In this document: piece by piece, positions 3,717 through 52,711 of the stretch
Numbering within the stretch: position 1 is the first letter of the stretch
Layout: each line of letters opens with the position of its first letter
NCBI GenBank assembly: GCA_963663165.1
Contig: OY760175.1
Span: forward strand, 96,001 to 160,000
Direction of reading: 5' to 3'
Length of the DNA: 64,000 nt
Source: an uncultured Desulfospira sp.
Lineage (GTDB): Bacteria; Desulfobacterota; Desulfobacteria; Desulfobacterales; Desulfobacteraceae
Translations under genes and position numbers: made by a program
Notes under the pieces: generated by a model
Seen by the model: only the letters and a program-made list of their open reading frames with translations
Told to the model about the DNA's origin: nothing
Database searches by the model: none

Positions 3717-3762
3717 GCAGACCGGAGGACGGAGACCGGAAGACCGATGCCTTAAGTTTTCG

Positions 3763-3804
3763 GCTAAAAGCTAACAGCTAAAGGCTAACAGCTAACAGCT
3801 AAAA
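3763..3804 (+). repeat. Tandem heptamer array (GCTAAMR), 6 units, preceded by a GGAGACC-type arm at ~3718-3747
   Basis: gctaaaa gctaaca gctaaag gctaaca gctaaca gctaaaa. Confidence 0.9.
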
Positions 3805-3816
3805 ATAAAGAACGCC

Positions 3817-4239
3817 ATGTTAAATAAAAATCAGTTAAACGCCATAGACCATGTCATTCAAACCCACCTGATTGCCGCCGGCATAGACCATGTAATTTAC
3901 ATGGACATGAGCGGCAACGCCATTGCCAAGCATGACAGCGGCCAAACCAAACTGGATTCCACGGCCTTTGCCGCCCTGGCGGCAGGCAACTTTGCCGCCG
4001 TGGATGCCATGGCCAAACTGGTGGGAGAATCTGAGTTTTCGCTGTTGTTTCACAAGGGTGAAAAATCAAGCATTCATTTTAGTAAAGTCTGCGACAACAC
4101 GCTTTTGATCTCCATGTTCAATAAAGATGTCTCTTTAGGAATGGTCCGGTTAAAGGTGGCTGAGGCCATCAAGGCCATGGAAAAGGTTCTGGCGGATCCC
4201 GACATGAAATGGGACGACTTGGATCATTCAGGGGCATAA
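3817..4239 (+). CDS. mglB: MglB-like roadblock/LC7 protein (putative GAP)
   Basis: ALAAGNFAA..AMAKLVGESEFSLLFHKGEKSSIH...SLGMVRLK; adjacent to mglA. Confidence 0.9.
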   Translation: MLNKNQLNAIDHVIQTHLIAAGIDHVIYMDMSGNAIAKHDSGQTKLDSTAFAALAAGNFAAVDAMAKLVGESEFSLLFHKGEKSSIHFSKVCDNTLLISMFNKDVSLGMVRLKVAEAIKAMEKVLADPDMKWDDLDHSGA

Positions 4240-9413: not shown

Positions 9414-9416
9414 GCA

Positions 9417-9560
9417 GCGTTTGAACAAAAAGTCCCCCATCTGCTGTGTTACAGAAAAAACGGCAATCCTCACCACCGACAGGTTGCTCCGGTTGCCATT
9501 TTTTCTGGTTTCTGACCTTTAGGTTACGCCTTGCATCTGGGCAGCGTTTTGCCCAGACGC
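9417..9560 (+). repeat. Palindromic dispersed repeat (MITE/REP-like), copy 1
   Basis: gcgtttgaacaaaaagtcccccatctgc...gcatctgggcagcgttttgcccagacgc; homologous to the reverse complement of 36446-36570, with a ~19-bp insertion. Confidence 0.85.
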
Positions 9561-9587
9561 GGGATCTCGTCTATACAGAAAATGCCA

Positions 9588-21049: not shown

Positions 21050-22360
21050 ATGTCCGAACCCACGGCATACCTGACCATCATCAACCGGTTTGTGGAACAT
21101 GACGCGGCCACTGCCGCAAGGTTTATGGAAAGTATGGATGAAGCGGATGCATCACAAATCCTTCAGGTGCTTCCCATCGAAACGGCTGTCCGGGTGATCC
21201 GCAATTTTCAGGTGGGGTTTGCCGCCGTGCTGCTGGAAGGGGCCGGAAGCGAGTTTGTCGGCCAGGTGCTTCCCCACATGACGCCCCAGATGCTCACCGC
21301 CATACTGATGCATGCGTCCGCACCCTTCAGAGAACAGATCAAGGCAACCCTTAATGAAACCGTTCAGGCGCAGATCAGTGAACTTCTGACCTATCCGGAA
21401 AGAAGCATTGGCCGGATTTTAAGCACTGACTTCATGTCATTTGACAAAGATATTCTGGTCCAGGATGCCATTGAAACCATCCGGTTCCTGTCCAAGAAAC
21501 GGGTGCCGGCCACCTACGCCTATGTGGTGGACGAGGAAAGTCACCTGCTCGGGGTGCTGAACATGCGCGATCTCTTGCTGGCCTCACCCGATCAGCCCCT
21601 TGAAGCCATCATGATCCGGGATGTTTTTTCCCTTCACGGGTTTATGGATGTCCAGGAAGCGGCGGCAGACCTTTCCAAACGAAAGTATTTTGCCGCCCCC
21701 GTGGTGGATTCGGAAAATAAAATTCTGGGGGTTATCAAGGCCGAACGTCTGATCAAGGGCGTCCGGGAAGACACGGCCCAGGACATCCAGCGGATGTTCG
21801 GTGCCGGCAGGGATGAGAAACCTTTTTCAAGTATCTTCTTTTCCCTGAAAAAACGGCTTTTCTGGCTGCACATTAACCTGGTGACGGCCTTTATGGCCGC
21901 CGGGGTCGTGGCCCTGTTTGAGGGCGTGATTTCAAAATTGACAATCCTTGCGGTATTTCTTCCCGTGGTTGCCGGCCAGGGGGGGAATGCCGGGGCCCAG
22001 TCCCTGGCCGTTGTCATGCGGGGCATTGCCATGCGGGAGATCCCAGAGGAAAAAGCGGGCCGGCTCATTTTAAAGGAGGGCGGGCTTGGGGCCATCAACG
22101 GGGTGGTGATCGGGATCGTCACGGCGGCAGCGGCCTGGCTCTGGGTGGGGAACCCTTATCTGGGGCTCGTGATTGGCCTTGGCATGTTTTTCAACCTGAT
22201 CTTTGCCGGCCTGTCCGGCGCGTCCATCCCGCTGTTCATGAAGCGGGTGGGGATTGATCCGGCCCAGAGTTCCAGCATCATCCTGACCACGGTAACCGAT
22301 ATCCTGGGGTTTCTGGCATTTCTCGGGTTTGCCGTGATCTTCCAGTCTTACCTGGTGTGA
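21050..22360 (+). CDS. mgtE: Magnesium transporter MgtE
   Basis: N domain, CBS pair, KKRLFWL, GQGGNAGAQS, DPAQSS..LTTVTD; ATG at 21050 follows AAGGAGG. Confidence 0.93.
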   Translation: MSEPTAYLTIINRFVEHDAATAARFMESMDEADASQILQVLPIETAVRVIRNFQVGFAAVLLEGAGSEFVGQVLPHMTPQMLTAILMHASAPFREQIKATLNETVQAQISELLTYPERSIGRILSTDFMSFDKDILVQDAIETIRFLSKKRVPATYAYVVDEESHLLGVLNMRDLLLASPDQPLEAIMIRDVFSLHGFMDVQEAAADLSKRKYFAAPVVDSENKILGVIKAERLIKGVREDTAQDIQRMFGAGRDEKPFSSIFFSLKKRLFWLHINLVTAFMAAGVVALFEGVISKLTILAVFLPVVAGQGGNAGAQSLAVVMRGIAMREIPEEKAGRLILKEGGLGAINGVVIGIVTAAAAWLWVGNPYLGLVIGLGMFFNLIFAGLSGASIPLFMKRVGIDPAQSSSIILTTVTDILGFLAFLGFAVIFQSYLV

Positions 22361-22444: not shown

Positions 22445-22756
22445 TAACGGCCACGGGCCGCTTTGGTTATCCAACCAAGAGCCGCCCACAACAAATATTG
22501 AAAGTCTTCTCAGGACGTTAGTGAGACTTTCATATAACCGTCACGGACGGCTTGGATTATCCAACCAAGCACCGCCCACAACGAAAAATGAAAGTCTTTT
22601 CGGCTTGTCAGTGAGACTTTCATATAACGGCCACGGGCCACAAGCCCACAACGAATAATGAAACTGAAGATACCAGCAACGGTAGACTATAAATTGGGCA
22701 CCGCAGGTGCTTCGCCCTCTTGTCTCTTGTTTCTTGTCTCCAGTTTCTTATAAAAA
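22445..22756 (+). repeat. Modular structured repeat, copy A (two 90-bp units plus a 132-bp terminal module)
   Basis: Units start at 22445, 22535 and 22625; near-identical to 49789-50010; several hairpins. Confidence 0.9.
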
Positions 22757-22772: not shown

Positions 22773-24446
22773 ATGTCTGGATTTGATTACTGGAAACTGC
22801 TCGCCGGCCTGGGGATTTTCATGTTCGGCATGCAGCTTCTGGAAACTTCCGTAAAAGAGCTGAGCGGTAAAGCGTTTCGCAAAATTATCCGGCATTATAC
22901 CAATACCCGGCTCAAGGCCATTGCCGCAGGGACGGCGGTCACCGCCCTGCTCCAGAGCAGTTCGGCGGTCTCTTTGATGGTCCTGGCCTTTGTGGGGGCC
23001 GGCATCATGAGCATGGAGAATGCCATTGGCGTTATTCTCGGTTCCAACATCGGGACCACCCTGACCGCCTGGATCGTGGCGACCCTGGGGTTCAAGGTCA
23101 GGATTGAGGCCTTTGCCCTGCCATTTGTCGGGATTGCCGCATTCGGACTGATCCTTGCAAAGCCCGGAACGCGGCCGGCCCATTTAACAAGGCTGTTGAT
23201 CGGGTTTGGTTTTCTTTTCCTTGGCCTGGATTATATGAAGACCAGTGTGGAGTTTTTTGCAAAGGAATTTGACCCCCAGCATCTGCACAACCTGGCCCTG
23301 TGGACATATCTGATCATCGGAACCGTCATGACGGCCCTGATGCAGGCCAGCGCCGCCACCATCGCCATCACCCTGGCCGCACTGCACAGCGGCCTGATGA
23401 CCTTTGAGATGGGGGCCGCCATGGTCATCGGGGCCAACATCGGCACCACCATCACCATCCTTCTCGGGGCCGCCGGTGGAACGCCGTCCAAAAAAAGGGT
23501 GGCGGCCAGCCATCTGGTCTTTAACCTTGTCTCCGGGATTGTTGCCTTTGCCGGCCTGCCCCTGATGGTCGCGGCGGTTAAATTGTTTGTGGATGTCTCT
23601 GCCAACGGGCCGGTGGGCCTGGCCCTGTTTCATACCCTGTTCAATGTCATCGGCGTGTTGATGTTTGTTCCTTTTATAAACACCCTCACCCGGCTGCTGG
23701 CCAAATTTCTGCCCGAACACCGGAAAACCATCAGCGTCTATCTGGTCAATACCCCGGCGGAGGAAGCCGAGGCAGCCGGTATTGCCATCAAAAACGAGGT
23801 GATCCACATGCTCCAGGAATGCCAGTTGTATGCCTTAAGGTCCCTGGCGCTGGATGAAAAACTGATATTTGACGAAAAGCTGCCCTTTGAGAAAAACGAA
23901 CGAAAGCAGCTGACAAAAGAAGCGCTTTTTGCCCAGATCGGACACCTTCATTCGGCCGTGGTGGCCTATTATTCAAGGATTCAGACCCAGACCACGGATG
24001 AACACAGAACAAGGGCGCTTGCCAGAGTCATTCTGGCCTCCAGGAATATCATGAATGCGGCCAAAAATTTTGAAGGCATACGGCCGATTCTGGATGAATT
24101 CGAAGCCTCCGAGTCCGCTTTTTTAAACCGCCAGTACGGCCGTTTCAGAAAGCGCCTGCTCCACTTTCTGACCGCCACGGGCGGCATATCGGAACGGCGG
24201 GACCCGGAATCGGTCTACCAGACCATCATTAAGGCATTCAAAGAACTTGAATCCGACGATAACCTCTTTATCCAGGAAACCGTGAAGGCATCTGCCGAAG
24301 ATCCGGCAGGGGATCTGGACCTGTCGGCGCTTCTATTATCCAACCGGCTGTTTACCCAGGCCGGAAGAATGCTCATTTTCAGCATGAAAGACCTGTTTTT
24401 GACACCGGAGCAGGCCCAGGCCTTTGATAAAGAGACCAACAATTAA
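22773..24446 (+). CDS. Na+/Pi cotransporter family protein
   Basis: GLGIFMFGM, TALLQSSSA, GSNIGTT, LMQASAAT, GANIGTT; soluble helical C-terminus. Confidence 0.9.
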   Translation: MSGFDYWKLLAGLGIFMFGMQLLETSVKELSGKAFRKIIRHYTNTRLKAIAAGTAVTALLQSSSAVSLMVLAFVGAGIMSMENAIGVILGSNIGTTLTAWIVATLGFKVRIEAFALPFVGIAAFGLILAKPGTRPAHLTRLLIGFGFLFLGLDYMKTSVEFFAKEFDPQHLHNLALWTYLIIGTVMTALMQASAATIAITLAALHSGLMTFEMGAAMVIGANIGTTITILLGAAGGTPSKKRVAASHLVFNLVSGIVAFAGLPLMVAAVKLFVDVSANGPVGLALFHTLFNVIGVLMFVPFINTLTRLLAKFLPEHRKTISVYLVNTPAEEAEAAGIAIKNEVIHMLQECQLYALRSLALDEKLIFDEKLPFEKNERKQLTKEALFAQIGHLHSAVVAYYSRIQTQTTDEHRTRALARVILASRNIMNAAKNFEGIRPILDEFEASESAFLNRQYGRFRKRLLHFLTATGGISERRDPESVYQTIIKAFKELESDDNLFIQETVKASAEDPAGDLDLSALLLSNRLFTQAGRMLIFSMKDLFLTPEQAQAFDKETNN

Positions 24447-29613: not shown

Positions 29614-29697
29614 TGAGACTTGGGATATGGGATATGGGACTTGGGGAGGCCGTGGATGCCGCAATCCCCAGGTCCCATATCCCAAGTCCCAAGTCCA
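29614..29697. repeat. Inverted heptamer repeat (TGGGAYW / TCCCAAG arms) hairpin
   Basis: tgagact tgggata tgggata tgggact tgggga ... ccccagg tcccata tcccaag tcccaag. Confidence 0.9.
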
Positions 29698-34971: not shown

Positions 34972-35045
34972 AGGGATATGGGACCTGGGATATGGGATAT
35001 GGGGAAAACAGCCCCAAGTCCCGAGTCCCATATCCCAAGTCCCCA
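34972..35045. repeat. Inverted heptamer repeat (TGGGAYW family) between nqrC and nqrD
   Basis: agggata tgggacc tgggata tgggata tggggaa ... cccaag tcccgag tcccata tcccaag tcccc. Confidence 0.9.
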
Positions 35046-35061
35046 CTAAGGAAAATTTGAT

Positions 35062-35750: not shown

Positions 35751-36359
35751 ATGGGCGATTTATTCAGTCTGTTTATCAATTCGGTTTTTATCGGCAATAT
35801 CCTGCTGGCCTATTTTCTGGGCATGTGTTCGTTTATTGCCGTGTCCAAGAATGTGGAAACGGCCATTGGCTTAGGGTCTGCCGTGATTTTTGTCCTCACG
35901 GTGACAAGTCCGGTCAACTGGATTGTGTATCATGGGTTTCTGGCTCCCGGGGCTCTGTCCTGGGCCGGATTTCCGGACCTGGACTTGAGTTTCTTAAAAT
36001 ACATCACCTTTATTGCCGTGATTGCGGCCATGGTCCAGGCCGTTGAGATGATCATTGACCGGCACTCCCCGACCCTTTACGCCAGCCTTGGGGTATTTCT
36101 TCCCCTCATTGCCGTTAACTGCGCCATCCTGGGCACCAGCCTGTTCATGGTGGAGCGCAATTATACCCTGGTGGAGTCCATTATTTTCGGGGCCGGGTCC
36201 GGCACGGGCTGGATGCTGGCCATTGTCTCCATGGCGGCCATCCGCTTAAAGCTTCGGTACGCCGATGTGCCCCAGGGACTTCAGGGTTTCGGGATCACCA
36301 TGATTGTAGCCGGCCTCATGGCCATGACCTTTATGATGTTTTCAGGAATAACCTTATAG
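35751..36359 (+). CDS. nqrE: Na+-NQR subunit E
   Basis: [37 protein letters not shown]. Confidence 0.95.
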
Positions 36360-36390
36360 GGACTTGGGACTTGGGATATGGGACTTGGGG
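36358..36390 (+). repeat. Single-arm TGGGAYW heptamer array after nqrE
   Basis: agggact tgggact tgggata tgggact tgggg. Confidence 0.8.
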
Positions 36391-36445
36391 AAAAGAACTG
36401 CAAGACAATCCCTGGTTCCTAAAATAGTGCCTGAACGACAATCCC

Positions 36446-36570
36446 GTGTTTGGGCGAAAAGTTGCCCAGATGCAAGGCGCAGAAAAATTTGTAACCGGAG
36501 CAACCCGGGGGTTGTGAGGATTGCAAATTTTTCTGCAACACAGCAGATGGGTGACTTTTCGTTCAAACAC
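36446..36570 (-). repeat. Palindromic dispersed repeat (MITE/REP-like), copy 2, between nqrE and nqrF
   Basis: gtgtttgggcgaaaagttgcccagatgcaaggcg...cagcagatgggtgacttttcgttcaaacac; reverse-complement homolog of 9417-9560. Confidence 0.85.
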
Positions 36571-36588
36571 TAAAATAGAGGGGGTATT

Positions 36589-39687: not shown

Positions 39688-40716
39688 ATGAGCAGCCATT
39701 ATGTAATTCTGGGAAACGGACCTGCCGGGAACCGGGCCGCCCTGACCCTGAGGGAGCATGATCCTGAAGGGGACATCACCATCATTTCCGATGAAAATAT
39801 CGAGTTTTACTATAAACCCAGGCTGACCGGATACCTGGCCGGGAAGGTGGCCCAGGAACGGCTCAAGGTAAGGGATTTCAAGTTTTATGAAGACAAGGGC
39901 ATCCGGCTTCGGTTAGGCCAGAAAGTCAGTGCCCTGGATCTGGACCAAAATCAGGTCCTGCTGGATCACTGCGAAACCGTGGGCTTCGACAGGCTCATCA
40001 TTGCCGCAGGCTCAACCGAGCGGCTGCTGCCAAGCCTTGCCCCCTTTAAGGAACACCTGAAATTCATCACCTCCTACAAAGCGGTCATGGCCTTTAAGGA
40101 TCAGATTCAACAGGCCAACGAGTTTTTTCTGCTGGGCGGGGACCTGGTGGGGTTCCGGTTTTCAAGCATGCTCAGGTCCATGGGCAAGCGCGTCACCATG
40201 CTGTTGTTTCCCGATGCCTTCTGGCCCTTTAACCTGACCGATGAGATGCTGAAAAATATTGAGGCAAGCCTCTCCAACACCGGAACAAAGGTAATCCCGC
40301 GGGATGCCCTGGCCCATGTGGAGACCCGGGACGGCAAACCCTGGATCACCACCAGAGCCGGTATTGAACAGGCCGCAGACCTGGTATTCTCCTTTAACGG
40401 GCTCATCCCCCGGGTGGATTTTGCCAAAGGCTCGGGCCTGGACATTGACCGGGGCATTCTGGTCAATGAATTTTTGCAGACCAATGTGGAACATGTCTAT
40501 GCCTGCGGCTCCTGCGCCCAGATTTACCATCCCGGGATCAAGGCCTATATCACCTCCATGGGCTGGCCCAACGCCGACATCCAGGGAAAGACCGCGGCCT
40601 TGAACCTGCTTGGGGAAAGCCGGCGGGTCGAGTCGGCCCCGCGCAAGTACTTTGACCTGGAAGGGGTGCAGATCAAGACCGCCTGGTGGGATGATATTGA
40701 CAGCTTTGATATATGA
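39688..40716 (+). CDS. FAD-dependent pyridine nucleotide-disulfide oxidoreductase (rubredoxin-reductase-like)
   Basis: VILGNGPAG, YYKP.L, FDRLIIAAGS, GILVNEFLQTN...VYACGSCA; second GxG motif degenerate (GGDLVG). Confidence 0.85.
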   Translation: MSSHYVILGNGPAGNRAALTLREHDPEGDITIISDENIEFYYKPRLTGYLAGKVAQERLKVRDFKFYEDKGIRLRLGQKVSALDLDQNQVLLDHCETVGFDRLIIAAGSTERLLPSLAPFKEHLKFITSYKAVMAFKDQIQQANEFFLLGGDLVGFRFSSMLRSMGKRVTMLLFPDAFWPFNLTDEMLKNIEASLSNTGTKVIPRDALAHVETRDGKPWITTRAGIEQAADLVFSFNGLIPRVDFAKGSGLDIDRGILVNEFLQTNVEHVYACGSCAQIYHPGIKAYITSMGWPNADIQGKTAALNLLGESRRVESAPRKYFDLEGVQIKTAWWDDIDSFDI

Positions 40717-40803
40717 GATTCTGGGATATGGGACTTGGGATATGGGGCTTGCGGGACAGTTTGATAATGCAACCCCAAGTCCCAAATCCCAAGTCCCATA
40801 TCC
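40713..40803. repeat. Inverted heptamer repeat (TGGGAYW family)
   Basis: tgggata tgggact tgggata tgggg ... ccccaag tcccaaa tcccaag tcccata tcc. Confidence 0.9.
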
Positions 40804-40821
40804 TGATAAAGAGGAAAAACA

Positions 40822-44987: not shown

Positions 44988-47900
44988 TTAACAATCAGGC
45001 TTGCCGGTAAGTGTGTTGCTGATTAACCAGTTGTAAAGACCCTCAGCTACAGTTCGTGCCTCAGGGTTTAAACCAAACAGGAGTTCTTTTTCCTGGAAAA
45101 AAGCCTGGGCCGCAGCCGCATAAGGTTCCAGTGACATATCAAACCCATGATTTTTTAAAAAATTAAGATAAAATGTATCAAACCCAAGGTTCTTAATAAG
45201 CCTTGTAAGCCGGAGCAGGTCAACCCTGAAGACGATCCACAGTTCTATAGGGTTCTTTTCAAATACCGGCCTTAACCGGTCACAACACAAACCAGGATTG
45301 CCTTCAATTAAATCGTGTGCTGCCAGCAATAAGGCTTTACCCGGAAAGGGCAGGTTGTGAATGCTTTCCAATTGCTCCTTGAATCTGTGAATATTTTTTT
45401 GTTTTAAATTCAGCCAGAGGAGATTGGCTTTGCAAATGCTTCCATCCGGATCAAGTTTGATGGCTTCCAGATAAGCGGCCTTACTGTCTTCATCCTTATT
45501 AAGATGGTCCTGGTACAAGCTGCCCAGGCCATCCCATGGCTGGACAATTGTGGGATCAAGTTTAATGGCTTTTTTATAAACCCGTTCACTGTCTTGATAT
45601 CGGTTAAGATGCTCCCTGTACAAATTACCCAGGCCATTCCACGGGTAAGCATATGTGGGATCAAGTTCTATGGCCTTTTGGTAAGCCTGTTCGCTTTCTT
45701 CATATCGGTTAAGACGCTCCCCGTACAAATTACCCAGGCCATTCCACGGGTAAGCATATGTGGGATCAAGTTCTATGGCCTTTTGGTAAGCCTGTTCGCT
45801 TTCTTCATATCGGTTAAGACGCCCCTCATACAAATTACCCAGGCCATTCCACGGGTAAGCAGATACGGGATCAAGTTCCATGGCTTTTTTGTAAGCCTGT
45901 TCACTGTCCTCATATCGGTTTAGGTAAAACTGGTACAACCCCGCCAGATTAAACCATACGTCAGCGTTCGTTGGATCAATCTCTATGGTTTGCTTGTATG
46001 CCCGTTCGCTGTTTTCATATTGGTTGAGGTGAGTCTGGTATAAGATCCCCAGATTGAACCAGGCAGTAGGGTTCGTTGGATTGAATTTAATGGCTTTTTT
46101 GTAGGCGTGTTCACTGTCCTTATATCGTTTGAGGTGAGCCTGGTACAAGTTCCCCAGATTTAACCAAATGAGATCATTTTTGGGGTTGAATTTAATGGCT
46201 TTTTGGTAAGCCCGTTCGCTGTCTTCATATCGGTTGAGGTGAACTTCGTATAACTTACCCAGATTTACCCATATGGATACATCTGTTGGGCTGAGCCCAA
46301 CGGCCTTTTTATAAGCCATTTCGCTCTTTTCGTATTGATTGAGGTGATATTGGCACAACCCGCCCAGATTAGCCCATATAAGTGCATTTGTTGGGTCAAG
46401 TTCAAGGGCCCTTTTGTAGGCCTGTTCACTTTCATTAAACCGGTTGAGATGTCCTCGGTACAAGTTCCCCAGGCCGTTCCAGGGGAAAGAAATTGTTGAG
46501 TCAAGTTCAATGGCATTTTTGTAAGCCTGTTCACTTTCTTCATACCGACTGAGTCGGATCTGGAACAAATTTCCCAGATTGTTCCAGGCAAGTGCGGTAG
46601 TCGGGGGCATTGCCTGACAAAAGGTTAAGAATTTTTCAATATCGGCATCTTTTGCGGACTCAAAAGTTTTAGAATATAAAAAGATATCGATAAAGTCATT
46701 ATCTTCACTGCCTGACAGAACCGCCAGTGCTTCCACAGGATCGGAAAATGATGTGAGGATACCATCCCTAAAAAGAGCGGACACTTTTTTGTATGGCGTA
46801 TCACCTAATACCTTTTTGATTCGCTGGGTTTCACTATAGAGAAAATCTGATAATTTTTTTTGTTGGGTAACGTCGAAATCTTTGGCAAAGTCCGCGTAAC
46901 GCTGTTTGCTTTTTAAACTCAACCCTATCGATTCGGAGACCTGTTGGGCCAATTCCCCGGCATCTGATGGAGATGCGCCGGCGGTAATGAATCCTTGGGC
47001 CATTTTTTTTCTACGAAGGTCATGGTCCAGTATCTTGGGCTCATAGTCTTCACCGGGCAGCAGATTCTGAATGAAGTCCGGGGTCTTGCCAATCAAAGGT
47101 TTTGTCAGGGCAGTGCGAAGTGCCTGCTGAAGCGGAGCATCGTGGTCCATGGCGTGAAGAAGGGCATCGCTGTAAAGGTTCCTGCAGGTGTTCTCTCTTG
47201 CAATTAACTGCCTGGCCTGGTCCCCAAGTTCCGTTTTTGAATAATAGGTTGACAAAAACCGGCTCAGCCACTGCAACCTGAGGCGGTTGCGCCGTGTGCC
47301 GTGGCGCATGAGATACCAGATATTATAGAACCTCTCTGCCAATTGGACCCCGTTTCGTTTAGGGCCCATGGACACTCGTTCCAGCAGGCCGTCTTTTTTC
47401 AGCCGGTTTATGAGCCCTGACAATGTGGTTGGGACAATTCCGGTAGTTTTTGATATTTCGGCCGAAGAGATTGGGTCCCATGCCAGGGCCACGGCATCAA
47501 TAACCCGGCGCTGCTGCTGCGACAGTTCTTCAGTCCGGGATTTATACAGGGGGGTGGTGGTCTCAAGGACCCCCTCCAGAAGCTGTCCCATATCTCCACC
47601 GTCGTCCGGAACTGCTTTGGCTATGGTTTCAAGAACCTGGTAGATTAAAACCAGGGTCCTGGGATTGCCCCCGCACAGGGTATGCATGACCCTGATTCGC
47701 TGGGGATGGCGCTGCATATCCAAAAGGACGTCCAGTCCGGGCTTTCCTCTTGTCCGGGCCAGCCGGACCAGGCATTCCTTCATCTCATGGGAATCCAGTG
47801 CCCCAAGGTCATCCATGGAAAAAAAATCGTAAAACGGTCCTTCCCGTTGGGAAAGCTGGGGCAGATGGGTTGGCGTGCAGGCAATCATCAGGGGGGCATG

Positions 47901-48452
47901 TTTATCAAGCAAGCTTTTTCTTAAAGCCCATTGATCTGTTACCGCCAGGCTGTCAAGGATAAGATTCAGGTTGTCCACCAACAGGATCAAGCGCCTGCTG
48001 TTCGCATCAGCAACGGCACAGATGTCTCTGTACAGATCCTTGCTTGCACGAACTGCATGATCTAAGGATTCAGCCTGGGCTGGTTTTCCGTTTTTTTCAC
48101 ACCAGTCAGCCAGGGCGTCGGCACAATTTTTCCAGAAATCATTTAATTGCCCGATATTATACTGCTCTTCCCGGAAATTGAGCGGTATCCAGGCTTGGGA
48201 AAGTGTGTGGTCATCTCTTACGGCCAAAGCGATTCTTCGCAGCAGCGACGTTTTTCCCATGCCCCGTTGCCCGAACACCAGACGGTGGTGAAGAATGGTC
48301 TGGTTGCCGCTTTCTGCGATGTGGCGCAGCATTCGATTCAAAAGAGGGAGCCGGGCCACAAATGTATTGAGAAAGTCGGTTTCATTCAGTTGCAGGGGAT
48401 CATAGACAGCCATTCGGAGTGTGGTGCCGGCTTTTTCTTCGGTCACAGACAT
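44988..48452 (-). CDS. P-loop ATPase (STAND-like) + winged helix + about 12 TPR repeats
   Basis: Walker A GQRGMGKT, Walker B LLVDNL, GGNPR, HTH-like SSAEISKTTG...TLSGLINRL, repeats of WxNLGNLY...RYEESEQAYQKAIELDP. Confidence 0.88.
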   Translation of the reverse strand: MSVTEEKAGTTLRMAVYDPLQLNETDFLNTFVARLPLLNRMLRHIAESGNQTILHHRLVFGQRGMGKTSLLRRIALAVRDDHTLSQAWIPLNFREEQYNIGQLNDFWKNCADALADWCEKNGKPAQAESLDHAVRASKDLYRDICAVADANSRRLILLVDNLNLILDSLAVTDQWALRKSLLDKHAPLMIACTPTHLPQLSQREGPFYDFFSMDDLGALDSHEMKECLVRLARTRGKPGLDVLLDMQRHPQRIRVMHTLCGGNPRTLVLIYQVLETIAKAVPDDGGDMGQLLEGVLETTTPLYKSRTEELSQQQRRVIDAVALAWDPISSAEISKTTGIVPTTLSGLINRLKKDGLLERVSMGPKRNGVQLAERFYNIWYLMRHGTRRNRLRLQWLSRFLSTYYSKTELGDQARQLIARENTCRNLYSDALLHAMDHDAPLQQALRTALTKPLIGKTPDFIQNLLPGEDYEPKILDHDLRRKKMAQGFITAGASPSDAGELAQQVSESIGLSLKSKQRYADFAKDFDVTQQKKLSDFLYSETQRIKKVLGDTPYKKVSALFRDGILTSFSDPVEALAVLSGSEDNDFIDIFLYSKTFESAKDADIEKFLTFCQAMPPTTALAWNNLGNLFQIRLSRYEESEQAYKNAIELDSTISFPWNGLGNLYRGHLNRFNESEQAYKRALELDPTNALIWANLGGLCQYHLNQYEKSEMAYKKAVGLSPTDVSIWVNLGKLYEVHLNRYEDSERAYQKAIKFNPKNDLIWLNLGNLYQAHLKRYKDSEHAYKKAIKFNPTNPTAWFNLGILYQTHLNQYENSERAYKQTIEIDPTNADVWFNLAGLYQFYLNRYEDSEQAYKKAMELDPVSAYPWNGLGNLYEGRLNRYEESEQAYQKAIELDPTYAYPWNGLGNLYGERLNRYEESEQAYQKAIELDPTYAYPWNGLGNLYREHLNRYQDSERVYKKAIKLDPTIVQPWDGLGSLYQDHLNKDEDSKAAYLEAIKLDPDGSICKANLLWLNLKQKNIHRFKEQLESIHNLPFPGKALLLAAHDLIEGNPGLCCDRLRPVFEKNPIELWIVFRVDLLRLTRLIKNLGFDTFYLNFLKNHGFDMSLEPYAAAAQAFFQEKELLFGLNPEARTVAEGLYNWLISNTLTGKPDC
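45540..45920 (-). repeat. 105-bp tandem repeats encoding 35-aa TPR units
   Basis: gggatcaagtt recurs at 45552, 45657, 45762 and 45867; 45618-45717 and 45723-45822 are identical by eye. Confidence 0.9.
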
Positions 48453-49788: not shown

Positions 49789-50010
49789 TAACGGCCACGG
49801 GCCGCCTTGGTTATCCAACCAAGAACCGCCCACAACAAATATTGAAAGTCTTCTCAGGACGTTAGTGAGACTTTCATATAACGGTCACGGACCACAAGCC
49901 CACAACGAATAATGAAACTGAAGATACCAGCAACGGTAGACTATAAATTGGGCACCGCAGGTGCTTCGCCCTCTTGTCTCTTGTGTCTTGTCTCCAGTTT
50001 CTTATAAAAA
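49789..50010 (+). repeat. Modular structured repeat, copy B (one 90-bp unit plus terminal module)
   Basis: Matches 22445-22534 plus 22625-22756 with 5 mismatches counted by eye. Confidence 0.9.
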
Positions 50011-52295: not shown

Positions 52296-52352
52296 GAAGA
52301 TCCGGTTGCTTCGGTATAGGGGATAACCCAATGTCATTAACTTAAGCGTTAA

Positions 52353-52410
52353 TACAAGAAACTGGAAACAAGAGACAAGAGGGTGAAGCGCCGTTGGCGC
52401 CCATTTTATA
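52353..52410 (-). repeat. Partial inverted copy (C) of the terminal module of the structured repeat
   Basis: Reverse complement tataaaatgggcgccaacggcgcttcaccctcttgtctcttgtttccagtttcttgta, versus 22688-22752. Confidence 0.8.
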
Positions 52411-52658
52411 ACCCCTGCGCTAGGCCAAATTTCTTAAGTTAATGGCATTGGGGGATAACCGTTATTTTGATTTGCCGGCAAGGCCGTGTTTCAGCCTGCC
52501 GGCAAATCCGTCTGCTTCCCCATGCCAGGGCAATCTTACGTGAAAATTAAGTTGAATAAAATGTAATGGAGGCCGGAAACCGGAAGAAGGGAGACCAGAT
52601 GCGCCCTTCAAGGGAACCCGGCATCCGGCATCTATCGCTCCATTTTGGGTCAATGCAA

Positions 52659-52711
52659 GGTGGGAGCGGGCCATGCCCGCGATTCGATCGCGGGCATGGC
52701 CCGCTCCCACC
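52659..52711. repeat. REP-doublet (REPIN-like) perfect palindrome with a 25-bp stem
   Basis: ggtgggagcgggccatgcccgcgat-tcg-atcgcgggcatggcccgctcccacc. Confidence 0.85.

Follow-up and report, generated by a model that had tools for sequence, protein, structure and literature searches.

Gene-less modules derived from IS110-family elements are already known. The main text on ISPpu9 of Pseudomonas putida KT2440 describes MITEPpu9, the ssr9 module, which moves alone or in tandem (PMC12288879). Like MITEPpu9 as described there, the repeat analyzed here is gene-less, is bounded by both ends of an IS110-family element, has a two-base core without target duplication, occurs in tandem with the IS or with itself and contains a palindrome inside its left end. 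The two differ in copy number and core (eight copies and AG for MITEPpu9, about 300 and AA here) and in target, as MITEPpu9 inserts in REPs whereas the present unit appears to target its own end. That text does not describe long subterminal repeats for ISPpu9, places its bridge RNA upstream and assigns a known small RNA to MITEPpu9. Tandem non-coding repeat units have also been reported beside IS110 transposases (bioRxiv 10.64898/2026.08.14.744561). In the main text of that preprint they resemble the present units in being head-to-tail and non-coding, with donor-end matches kept and guide matches on one side, but they lie within expanded IS loci, whereas most arrays here are far from a transposase and every unit begins and finishes with an IS end.

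Among autonomous elements, the IS1111 group (ISEc11, ISKpn4 and ISPa11) is described in the main texts of PMC11187229 and PMC11208160 with subterminal inverted repeats, a long downstream non-coding region and a target guide at the 3′ side of its loop, and these features recur in the parent element identified here. The left repeat of IS1111 elements is placed 7 bases inside the end, compared to about 30 in our IS and 50–70 in its mini-elements (minis); as the 7-base rule failed, the parent was not placed in the IS1111 group proper. Unlike IS1111 elements as described there, its right-target guide looks decayed and its clade groups among elements with an upstream RNA. With IS621 and CazIS110, according to the main texts of PMC11208160 and PMC13626964, it shares a DEDD recombinase, a two-base core and predicted left-target and left-donor guides in the top-strand sense. 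The right-donor guide of IS621 and CazIS110 pairs with the top strand by the core, whereas the corresponding segment here is a same-sense match to a motif on the far side of a hairpin. Neither this repeat family nor a same-sense donor guide was found in the literature consulted, whose figures and supplements may hold one.

We conclude, with a probability of about 0.9, that the repeat arose from an IS110-family element by an internal deletion that removed the gene and left both ends, and that it is likely moved in trans by the recombinase together with a predicted bridge RNA. The ends are common to mini and IS, filled and empty sites exist, the AA core is used without target duplication and three RNA segments covary with the DNA. 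As a repeat family this is ordinary selfish DNA of a known kind. For bridge recombinases, its hundreds of insertions form a natural record of the bases that a half-site guide needs, the minis define a minimal donor of 90 bases, and the covariation of guide and motif predicts a donor geometry unlike the IS621 model, the basis of programmable bridge editing.

The window, the whole 64,000-nucleotide stretch that was analyzed, is part of a 6.74-Mb single-contig genome (G000) and holds two arrays, copies A and B. An earlier note on this DNA had read a 90-bp register in copy A, and TAAC indeed recurs at 22445, 22535 and 22625. Copy A consists of two 90-bp units, which differ at 17 of 90 positions, and a 126-bp module. 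Copy B (49789–50010) has 5 mismatches in 222 bases (2 + 3) against unit 1 plus the terminal module of copy A, and the H1 variants, H2, H3, the gcccacaac motif and the two tail hairpins all read as previously described. The terminal module is present, but it has the frame of a complete unit, its first hairpin being short and its second long; this B type also occurs first or mid-array and reads as a unit with a longer insert. Unit 3 of copy A terminates in TATAA plus an A-run. The features are as follows.

21050..22360, + strand: mgtE magnesium transporter, upstream neighbour of copy A, outside the element (TIGR00400, 283.8 bits, cut-off 232.75)
22445..22447, + strand: target remnant TAA (sequence, flank logo, empty sites)
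22446–22447, + strand: AA recombination core, left junction of copy A (flank logo, empty sites)
22448..22537, + strand: mini-element unit 1, A type, 90 bp
22448..22460, + strand: H1 hairpin of unit 1 (covaries in this lineage; parent IS without H1)
22454..22488, + strand: left-end hairpin P1, a variable stem that includes the earlier-named H2
22487..22492, + strand: CACAAC motif (matched in the same sense by the 5′ strand of the predicted donor-binding loop)
22499..22507, + strand: left subterminal inverted repeat, the 5′ arm of H3
22524..22537, + strand: right subterminal inverted repeat and TATAA end (matches the predicted left-donor and target guides)
22538..22627, + strand: mini-element unit 2, A type, second subtype
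22628..22756, + strand: mini-element unit 3, B type, with short P1 and a long insert between the inverted repeats
22773..24446, + strand: Na/Pi symporter, downstream neighbour of copy A, outside the element (NF037997)
49792..49881, + strand: A-type unit of copy B, following TAA at 49789–49791
49882..50010, + strand: B-type unit of copy B

The earlier note had also proposed three places for the repeat. Two of these are the arrays above, the third belongs to a different element (see below), and the unit is genome-wide, with about 300 copies between genes at about 240 intergenic loci. A profile search of G000 returned 311 A-type matches (250 near full length) and 83 B-type matches (52 near full length) in 277 clusters, comprising 130 single A, 32 A-A, 5 A-A-A and many mixed A/B orders. 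None of the 241 single-strand loci lay within genes predicted by a simple gene caller, and the 5′ TAA was the predicted stop codon of the upstream gene in 29 of 219 cases. An assembly artefact, a doubt that the earlier note had raised, is not borne out: contigs of run X5 joined the array to both unique flanks, contigs of run X3 joined it to the left flank (no contig of either run spanned the whole array), and the family is present in a congener at other sites.

The repeat family is mobile. The earlier suggestion of a non-autonomous element that gains and loses units was confirmed by comparison with the congener G001: among orthologous intergenic sites in 800 kb of that genome, 17 were filled in G000 only, 14 in G001 only and 7 in both. 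The filled-and-empty comparison that had been proposed for mgtE-Na/Pi found this site empty in G001; for copy B, no orthologous left flank was present in the examined part of G001. A search with 175 loci of which both ends were defined gave 20 empty-site matches at ≥85% identity, one of them a self-match that was dropped. At the 19 informative sites the unit followed TAA or a similar sequence; nine of these sites had one extra A, five had two, two had none and the remaining three had 3–4 extra bases. The units have no terminal inverted repeat and do not duplicate the target, as the added bases are A and not a target copy. Among left flanks of 172 minis that start an array, TATAA accounted for 57 (33%), ACTAA for 46 (27%), AATAA for 30 (17%) and ATAAA for 9, against a background of 1.0%, 0.2% and 1.5% for the first three. 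These are the classes of the target guides of the IS clade described below, which ties the minis to that clade independently of the end match. Two other origins do not fit. A classical MITE is contradicted by the subterminal position of the repeats and by the extra A without target-site duplication, and a retro-element with an A-tail by the A-run being matched by the left-donor guide and by the IS ends.

The parent was recognized from what distant units have in common. What units from five other genera share is limited to a frame. It opens with AA|C-NNN-CAYG and a hairpin whose sequence and length are free, continues with CACAAC and, a few bases on, TGAAA, and closes with a second stem, again of free content, and TTTCATATAA. 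This frame, TTTCATATAA included, is exactly that of both ends of a 1739-bp IS110-family element in G000; a match to an IS end, which the earlier note had raised against its own reading, was thus found. A frame search of G000 that allowed a distant right end gave three copies whose second 'loop' contains the transposase and measures 1.7 kb in two of them and 3.6 kb in the third, which is interrupted. The three copies are identical in sequence and coincide with 3 of 4 PF02371 matches in G000; there is one left-end fragment besides. H3 is the pair of subterminal inverted repeats of the IS, closed over the deleted transposase. One X5 contig omits the IS exactly (1739 bases, AA..AA), at about 6% of flank depth and with 28 letters on its short side; as X5 may be the source run of G000, this fixes the IS ends and is not independent support. 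Contigs of four runs, which drop rare forms, contained no circle junction (back-joint).

The 419-aa protein of the parent IS matches NF033542, the IS110-family RNA-guided transposase, at 237.9 bits (cut-off 140), and has the DEDD RuvC-like domain and the Tnp domain with a catalytic serine. Residues D22, E73, D109, D112 and S310 are invariant in 7 homologs and align with IS621 chain 8wt6_A. Both IS and minis insert at a two-base core without target duplication. The IS has 9–10-bp subterminal repeats, and about 375 non-coding bases follow its stop codon, both features of IS1111 elements. The left repeat of the IS lies about 30 bases inside the end with a hairpin between (50–70 bases in minis); a start 7 bases ahead of the repeat is seen in only one or two units. 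Homologs of the transposase were found in 7 of 40 relatives and have the same ends wherever the contig reaches; those of G005 and G021 lie inside mini arrays, and one G000 IS copy is also flanked by minis. The minis are of the MITEPpu9 kind, being gene-less, sharing both ends with an autonomous IS and having filled and empty sites. Shared ends, shared target classes and joint arrays indicate that the IS likely mobilizes the minis in trans.

Of the partners that the earlier note had suggested looking for, HUH/RAYT and reverse transcriptase did not materialize; the partner that shares the ends is this IS110-family recombinase. An HUH enzyme (IS200/IS605 TnpA, RAYT or IS91 type) acting on single-stranded hairpins would accommodate the absence of terminal inverted repeats and target duplication and the hairpins near both ends, and the genome encodes 14 Y1 and 8 Y2 matches. 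None of these genes is bracketed by the element, a GTAG/GTGG foot is absent, the loci show no replication-strand bias (116/241, p 0.61) and the ends are those of an IS110 element. The repeat consequently lacks the bracketed HUH gene, foot and strand bias of REP/RAYT and IS200/IS605 systems (REP as defined in the main text of PMC6006769), and we consider an HUH origin highly improbable. That the units are attC-like sites or gene-less integron cassettes is next to negligible in probability. TAAC stands at the 5′ end, some 5′ ends fall on predicted TAA stops as counted above and the genome has an integron integrase, but the GTTRRRY partner that closes the attC hairpin with RYYYAAC is absent, empty targets are TAA followed by any base, and the units are scattered genome-wide and missing from the integron cassette array. 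The 14 Y1, 8 Y2 and one integron-integrase matches have units as loose neighbours only. The integron region itself (G000 4179000–4195607) contains the integrase (TIGR02249, over cut-off), a divergent small-gene array with several toxin-antitoxin-like genes and repeated reverse-transcriptase pieces. A two-step model, in which a hairpin module came first and a canonical IS1111 mini then inserted at CACAA, was rejected for want of a population of hairpin-only modules.

Could the units instead owe their retention to a role as structured RNA, be it as regulatory leader, terminator or processed small RNA, with mobility secondary? Folding is strong: the copy A array beats 100 of 100 shuffles on both strands (z −4.3 and −4.7). 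The covariation of H1 noted earlier persisted when more copies were aligned, with 886 of 920 cells Watson–Crick over 184 distinct full units; at two of the pairs, both sides had changed. No other helix of the G000 minis is as well kept as H1, which is retained even across a 19-base loop insert, and the IS does not explain its covariation. In addition, 160 of 241 loci face a same-sense downstream gene, more than the 56% expected from intergenic classes and only partly accounted for by stop-codon targets, and MITEPpu9 encodes a small RNA. Against this, of 38 orthologous sites 31 are filled in just one of the two congeners, the stems are free to differ by lineage and the conserved letters are the IS ends. 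Rfam gave no match at gathering score over the 64,000-nt window; by E-value, copy A had four matches (E 3.8–9.4) and the IS one (E 0.58), none of them real. The structured-RNA array of the earlier note, whose H3 is no more than the IS repeats, is therefore unsupported, and we regard maintenance as RNA as improbable. The note's broader claim of selection on structure holds for part of the repeat. H1 is not a family-wide feature: the parent IS lacks it, as do several unit types of the relatives, and its pairing may be selected or a product of template switching. A long A form at about 25 G000 loci (for example, 5938664 and 2377345) carries the 19-base H1-loop insert, which resembles the IS left-end hairpin; this form is relatively commoner in G001.

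A conserved block about 90 bases 3′ of the transposase stop folds into two domains and is the predicted bridge RNA, which would be about 120 bases long (G000 4367915–4368040). Three of its segments match the DNA in the top-strand sense, and putative left-target and left-donor guides of the IS110 type are among them. The target guide, the segment after GCGCG, matches the element's own left junction over 5–8 bases at 19 of 20 loci (read by eye; three of the 20 are one lineage), and the single exception is located behind the end of another unit. The guide changes with the junction (TATAAC, TAGAAC, TAATAAC, ATATAAAC, CATAAAT, ACTAAC, AGTGAAC and ATTAAC), and in the resident element it equals the element's own right end. 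The left-donor guide, CATATAAA(A), matches the right end of the element; in relatives, its eight-base equivalent tracks the right end through many variants.

The guides of the other half-sites were assessed by regex screens, which recovered 54 of 167 homolog loci and placed the left end by requiring a target-guide match, so that they give no independent evidence for the target guide. A right-target guide against the own flank was clear in 26 upstream-RNA relatives (0/2000 shuffles) and weak in 13 members of this clade (40/2000), in which it looks decayed; kin are not independent, so these and the following shuffle counts overstate significance. The 5′ strand of the donor domain, the candidate second donor guide, matched the motif after the left-end hairpin in the same sense at 5.96 of 7 positions, against a shuffled mean of 4.38 of 7 and with 0/5000 shuffles reaching the observed value (24 distinct guides from 50 loci; 4 mis-called rows dropped beforehand). 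Its antisense match to the top strand beside the core was at chance level (583/5000), and the parent element does not show the IS110 arrangement of right-target and right-donor guides antisense to the top strand. As CACAAC is invariant within the clade, the same-sense donor reading rests on relatives at 30–45% identity. A left-end hairpin of at least 4 pairs was present in 41 of 50 loci. In a tree made by a quick method, with a long outgroup and an unsure root, a branch with an SH-aLRT of 99 had the 17 downstream-RNA elements to one side; they stood among 36 elements with an upstream RNA.

Under the preferred IS110 reading, recombinase and RNA would be supplied in trans by the IS, and the recombinase would bring the ends together at the AA core, the product probably being a circle. 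The target guide would pair with about 6–7 bases left of the cut (xTATAA, xACTAA or xAATAA), and the AATATAAC segment of the predicted bridge RNA would set the target choice. With the right-target guide decayed, landing places would be common, which may explain the hundreds of copies, and only intergenic insertions, some at TAA stop codons, would persist. The unit's own right end, CATATAA, would be a perfect target, and new units would land behind old ones with subtypes mixed; that the resident guide equals this end is likely the simplest reason for the head-to-tail arrays. The left-donor guide would read CATATAAA(A) within the A-run, which allows two registers and could thereby give one or two extra A at right junctions. 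The resident guide does not serve the ACTAA class, so earlier helpers with other guides must be assumed. A point against the model is that H1, strong in minis and absent from the IS, is left unexplained.

The least certain step is that the second donor guide would pair with the strand opposite CACAAC, placed near the core by the left-end hairpin. Because the two guides are antiparallel in one internal loop, a DNA strand pairing with both must turn back; most speculatively, the left-end hairpin would give that turn and the donor would be a folded single strand. Recognition as single-stranded DNA, which the earlier note had suggested, may still apply. It is possible, although we hold it doubtful, that a broad IS110 subfamily reads its donor in this attC-like manner, and that here the bridge RNA was relocated to the right end, its right-target guide disappeared and the element's own end became its target. 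The hairpin would then fold the bottom strand back and let the two donor guides pair with one and the same strand, the subterminal repeats would close the structure, and in this branch a precise recombinase would have become what drives a self-stacking family of 300 copies. Several observations speak against the folded single strand. Strand asymmetry of wobble pairs was mixed, as it favoured the bottom strand in P1 (179 versus 13, nearly all from one pair) and the top strand in H2 (101 versus 49) and in the repeat stem (45 versus 25); in 138 of 184 junctions the bottom-strand fold was slightly lower. In the main text on ISPpu9, circles still formed after mutation of one left-end palindrome, although the A box holds a second hairpin (PMC12288879), and the contigs mentioned above gave no circle junction. 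Single-strand excision and half-match recombination have been reported for IS621 and CazIS110 in the main texts of two preprints (bioRxiv 10.1101/2025.10.25.684509; 10.64898/2026.08.31.748434).

Even with this origin, fresh insertion need not be the main route of array growth: most units could be duplicated in place, starting at the right end (half-match recombination), or arise by gene conversion. In-place duplication was proposed, in the preprint's main text, for tandem units with left-donor-only matches (10.64898/2026.08.14.744561), near-identical neighbours run together in G005 arrays, and different subtypes carry H1 halves and P1 partner arms in shuffled combinations. Neighbours in G000 arrays, however, are usually of different subtypes (copy A, 17/90 mismatches; A and B in many orders), and G000 array junctions carry 2, 3 or 4 A, as expected if insertion occurs on either side of a resident unit. 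We consider growth mainly by duplication or conversion unlikely. At 6163647, 6365664, 1732780 and 4169330 of G000, units form perfect palindromes or head-on insertions into each other.

The separate occurrence of minis and helper in some relatives speaks against the IS110 model. An exact 18-letter unit motif occurred 225 times in G000 and 296, 366, 141, 119, 28, 23 and 9 times in seven same-family relatives, with 1–3 copies in 7 further genomes and none in 26 of 41; the other congener, G002, had one match, and the reversed motif, used as a control, gave 1 match over all genomes. Four relatives with motif copies (G001, 296; G013, 119; G019, 28; G022, 23) yielded no helper IS with this query; G001, G013 and G022 are one- or two-contig genomes. 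A search of five genomes for helper remnants, run without a positive control, found none. With many minis and no helper found in four relatives, those minis may be stranded. The helper was present without an exact motif match in G014, G034 and G039. Named loci among homologs of the helper clade are mostly from Thermodesulfobacteriota, which makes the host probably a sulfate reducer of this group. In a Planctomycetota relative (L117), a short element with the same end layout lies directly upstream of the IS transposase, which places such minis outside this host group. One unit of G019 (L067), with an insert of about 170 bases in its second stem, is intermediate between mini and full element.

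The 'tail-only' third copy of the earlier note (52353–52410) proved to be part of a different element.

52329..52450, − strand: 122-bp MITE bounded by 18-bp terminal inverted repeats and flanked by a 10-bp direct repeat

We presume that this MITE is IS4-like, from its ends and long duplication. Its 52353–52410 piece resembles the B tail, and the tail is common to both families. In G000 the MITE family has 16 tail-bearing copies, 60 end-motif matches and target duplications of about 10 bp; at 5073759, the left half of the MITE is joined to a B-type right end in a chimera. The window contains further repeats. Heptamer tandem-repeat families form intergenic hairpins at 2842–2925, 3749–3818, 29615–29696, 34973–35046, 36354–36422 and 40711–40809. 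A dispersed repeat of about 130–150 bp occurs at 9416–9565 and 36441–36571 in inverted orientation, and elsewhere in G000 one mini-element is inserted in a member of this family. The TPR protein at 44988–48452 (− strand) includes ten 105-bp repeats (45366–46586), and a 25-bp perfect inverted repeat with a 3-base loop lies at 52659–52711.
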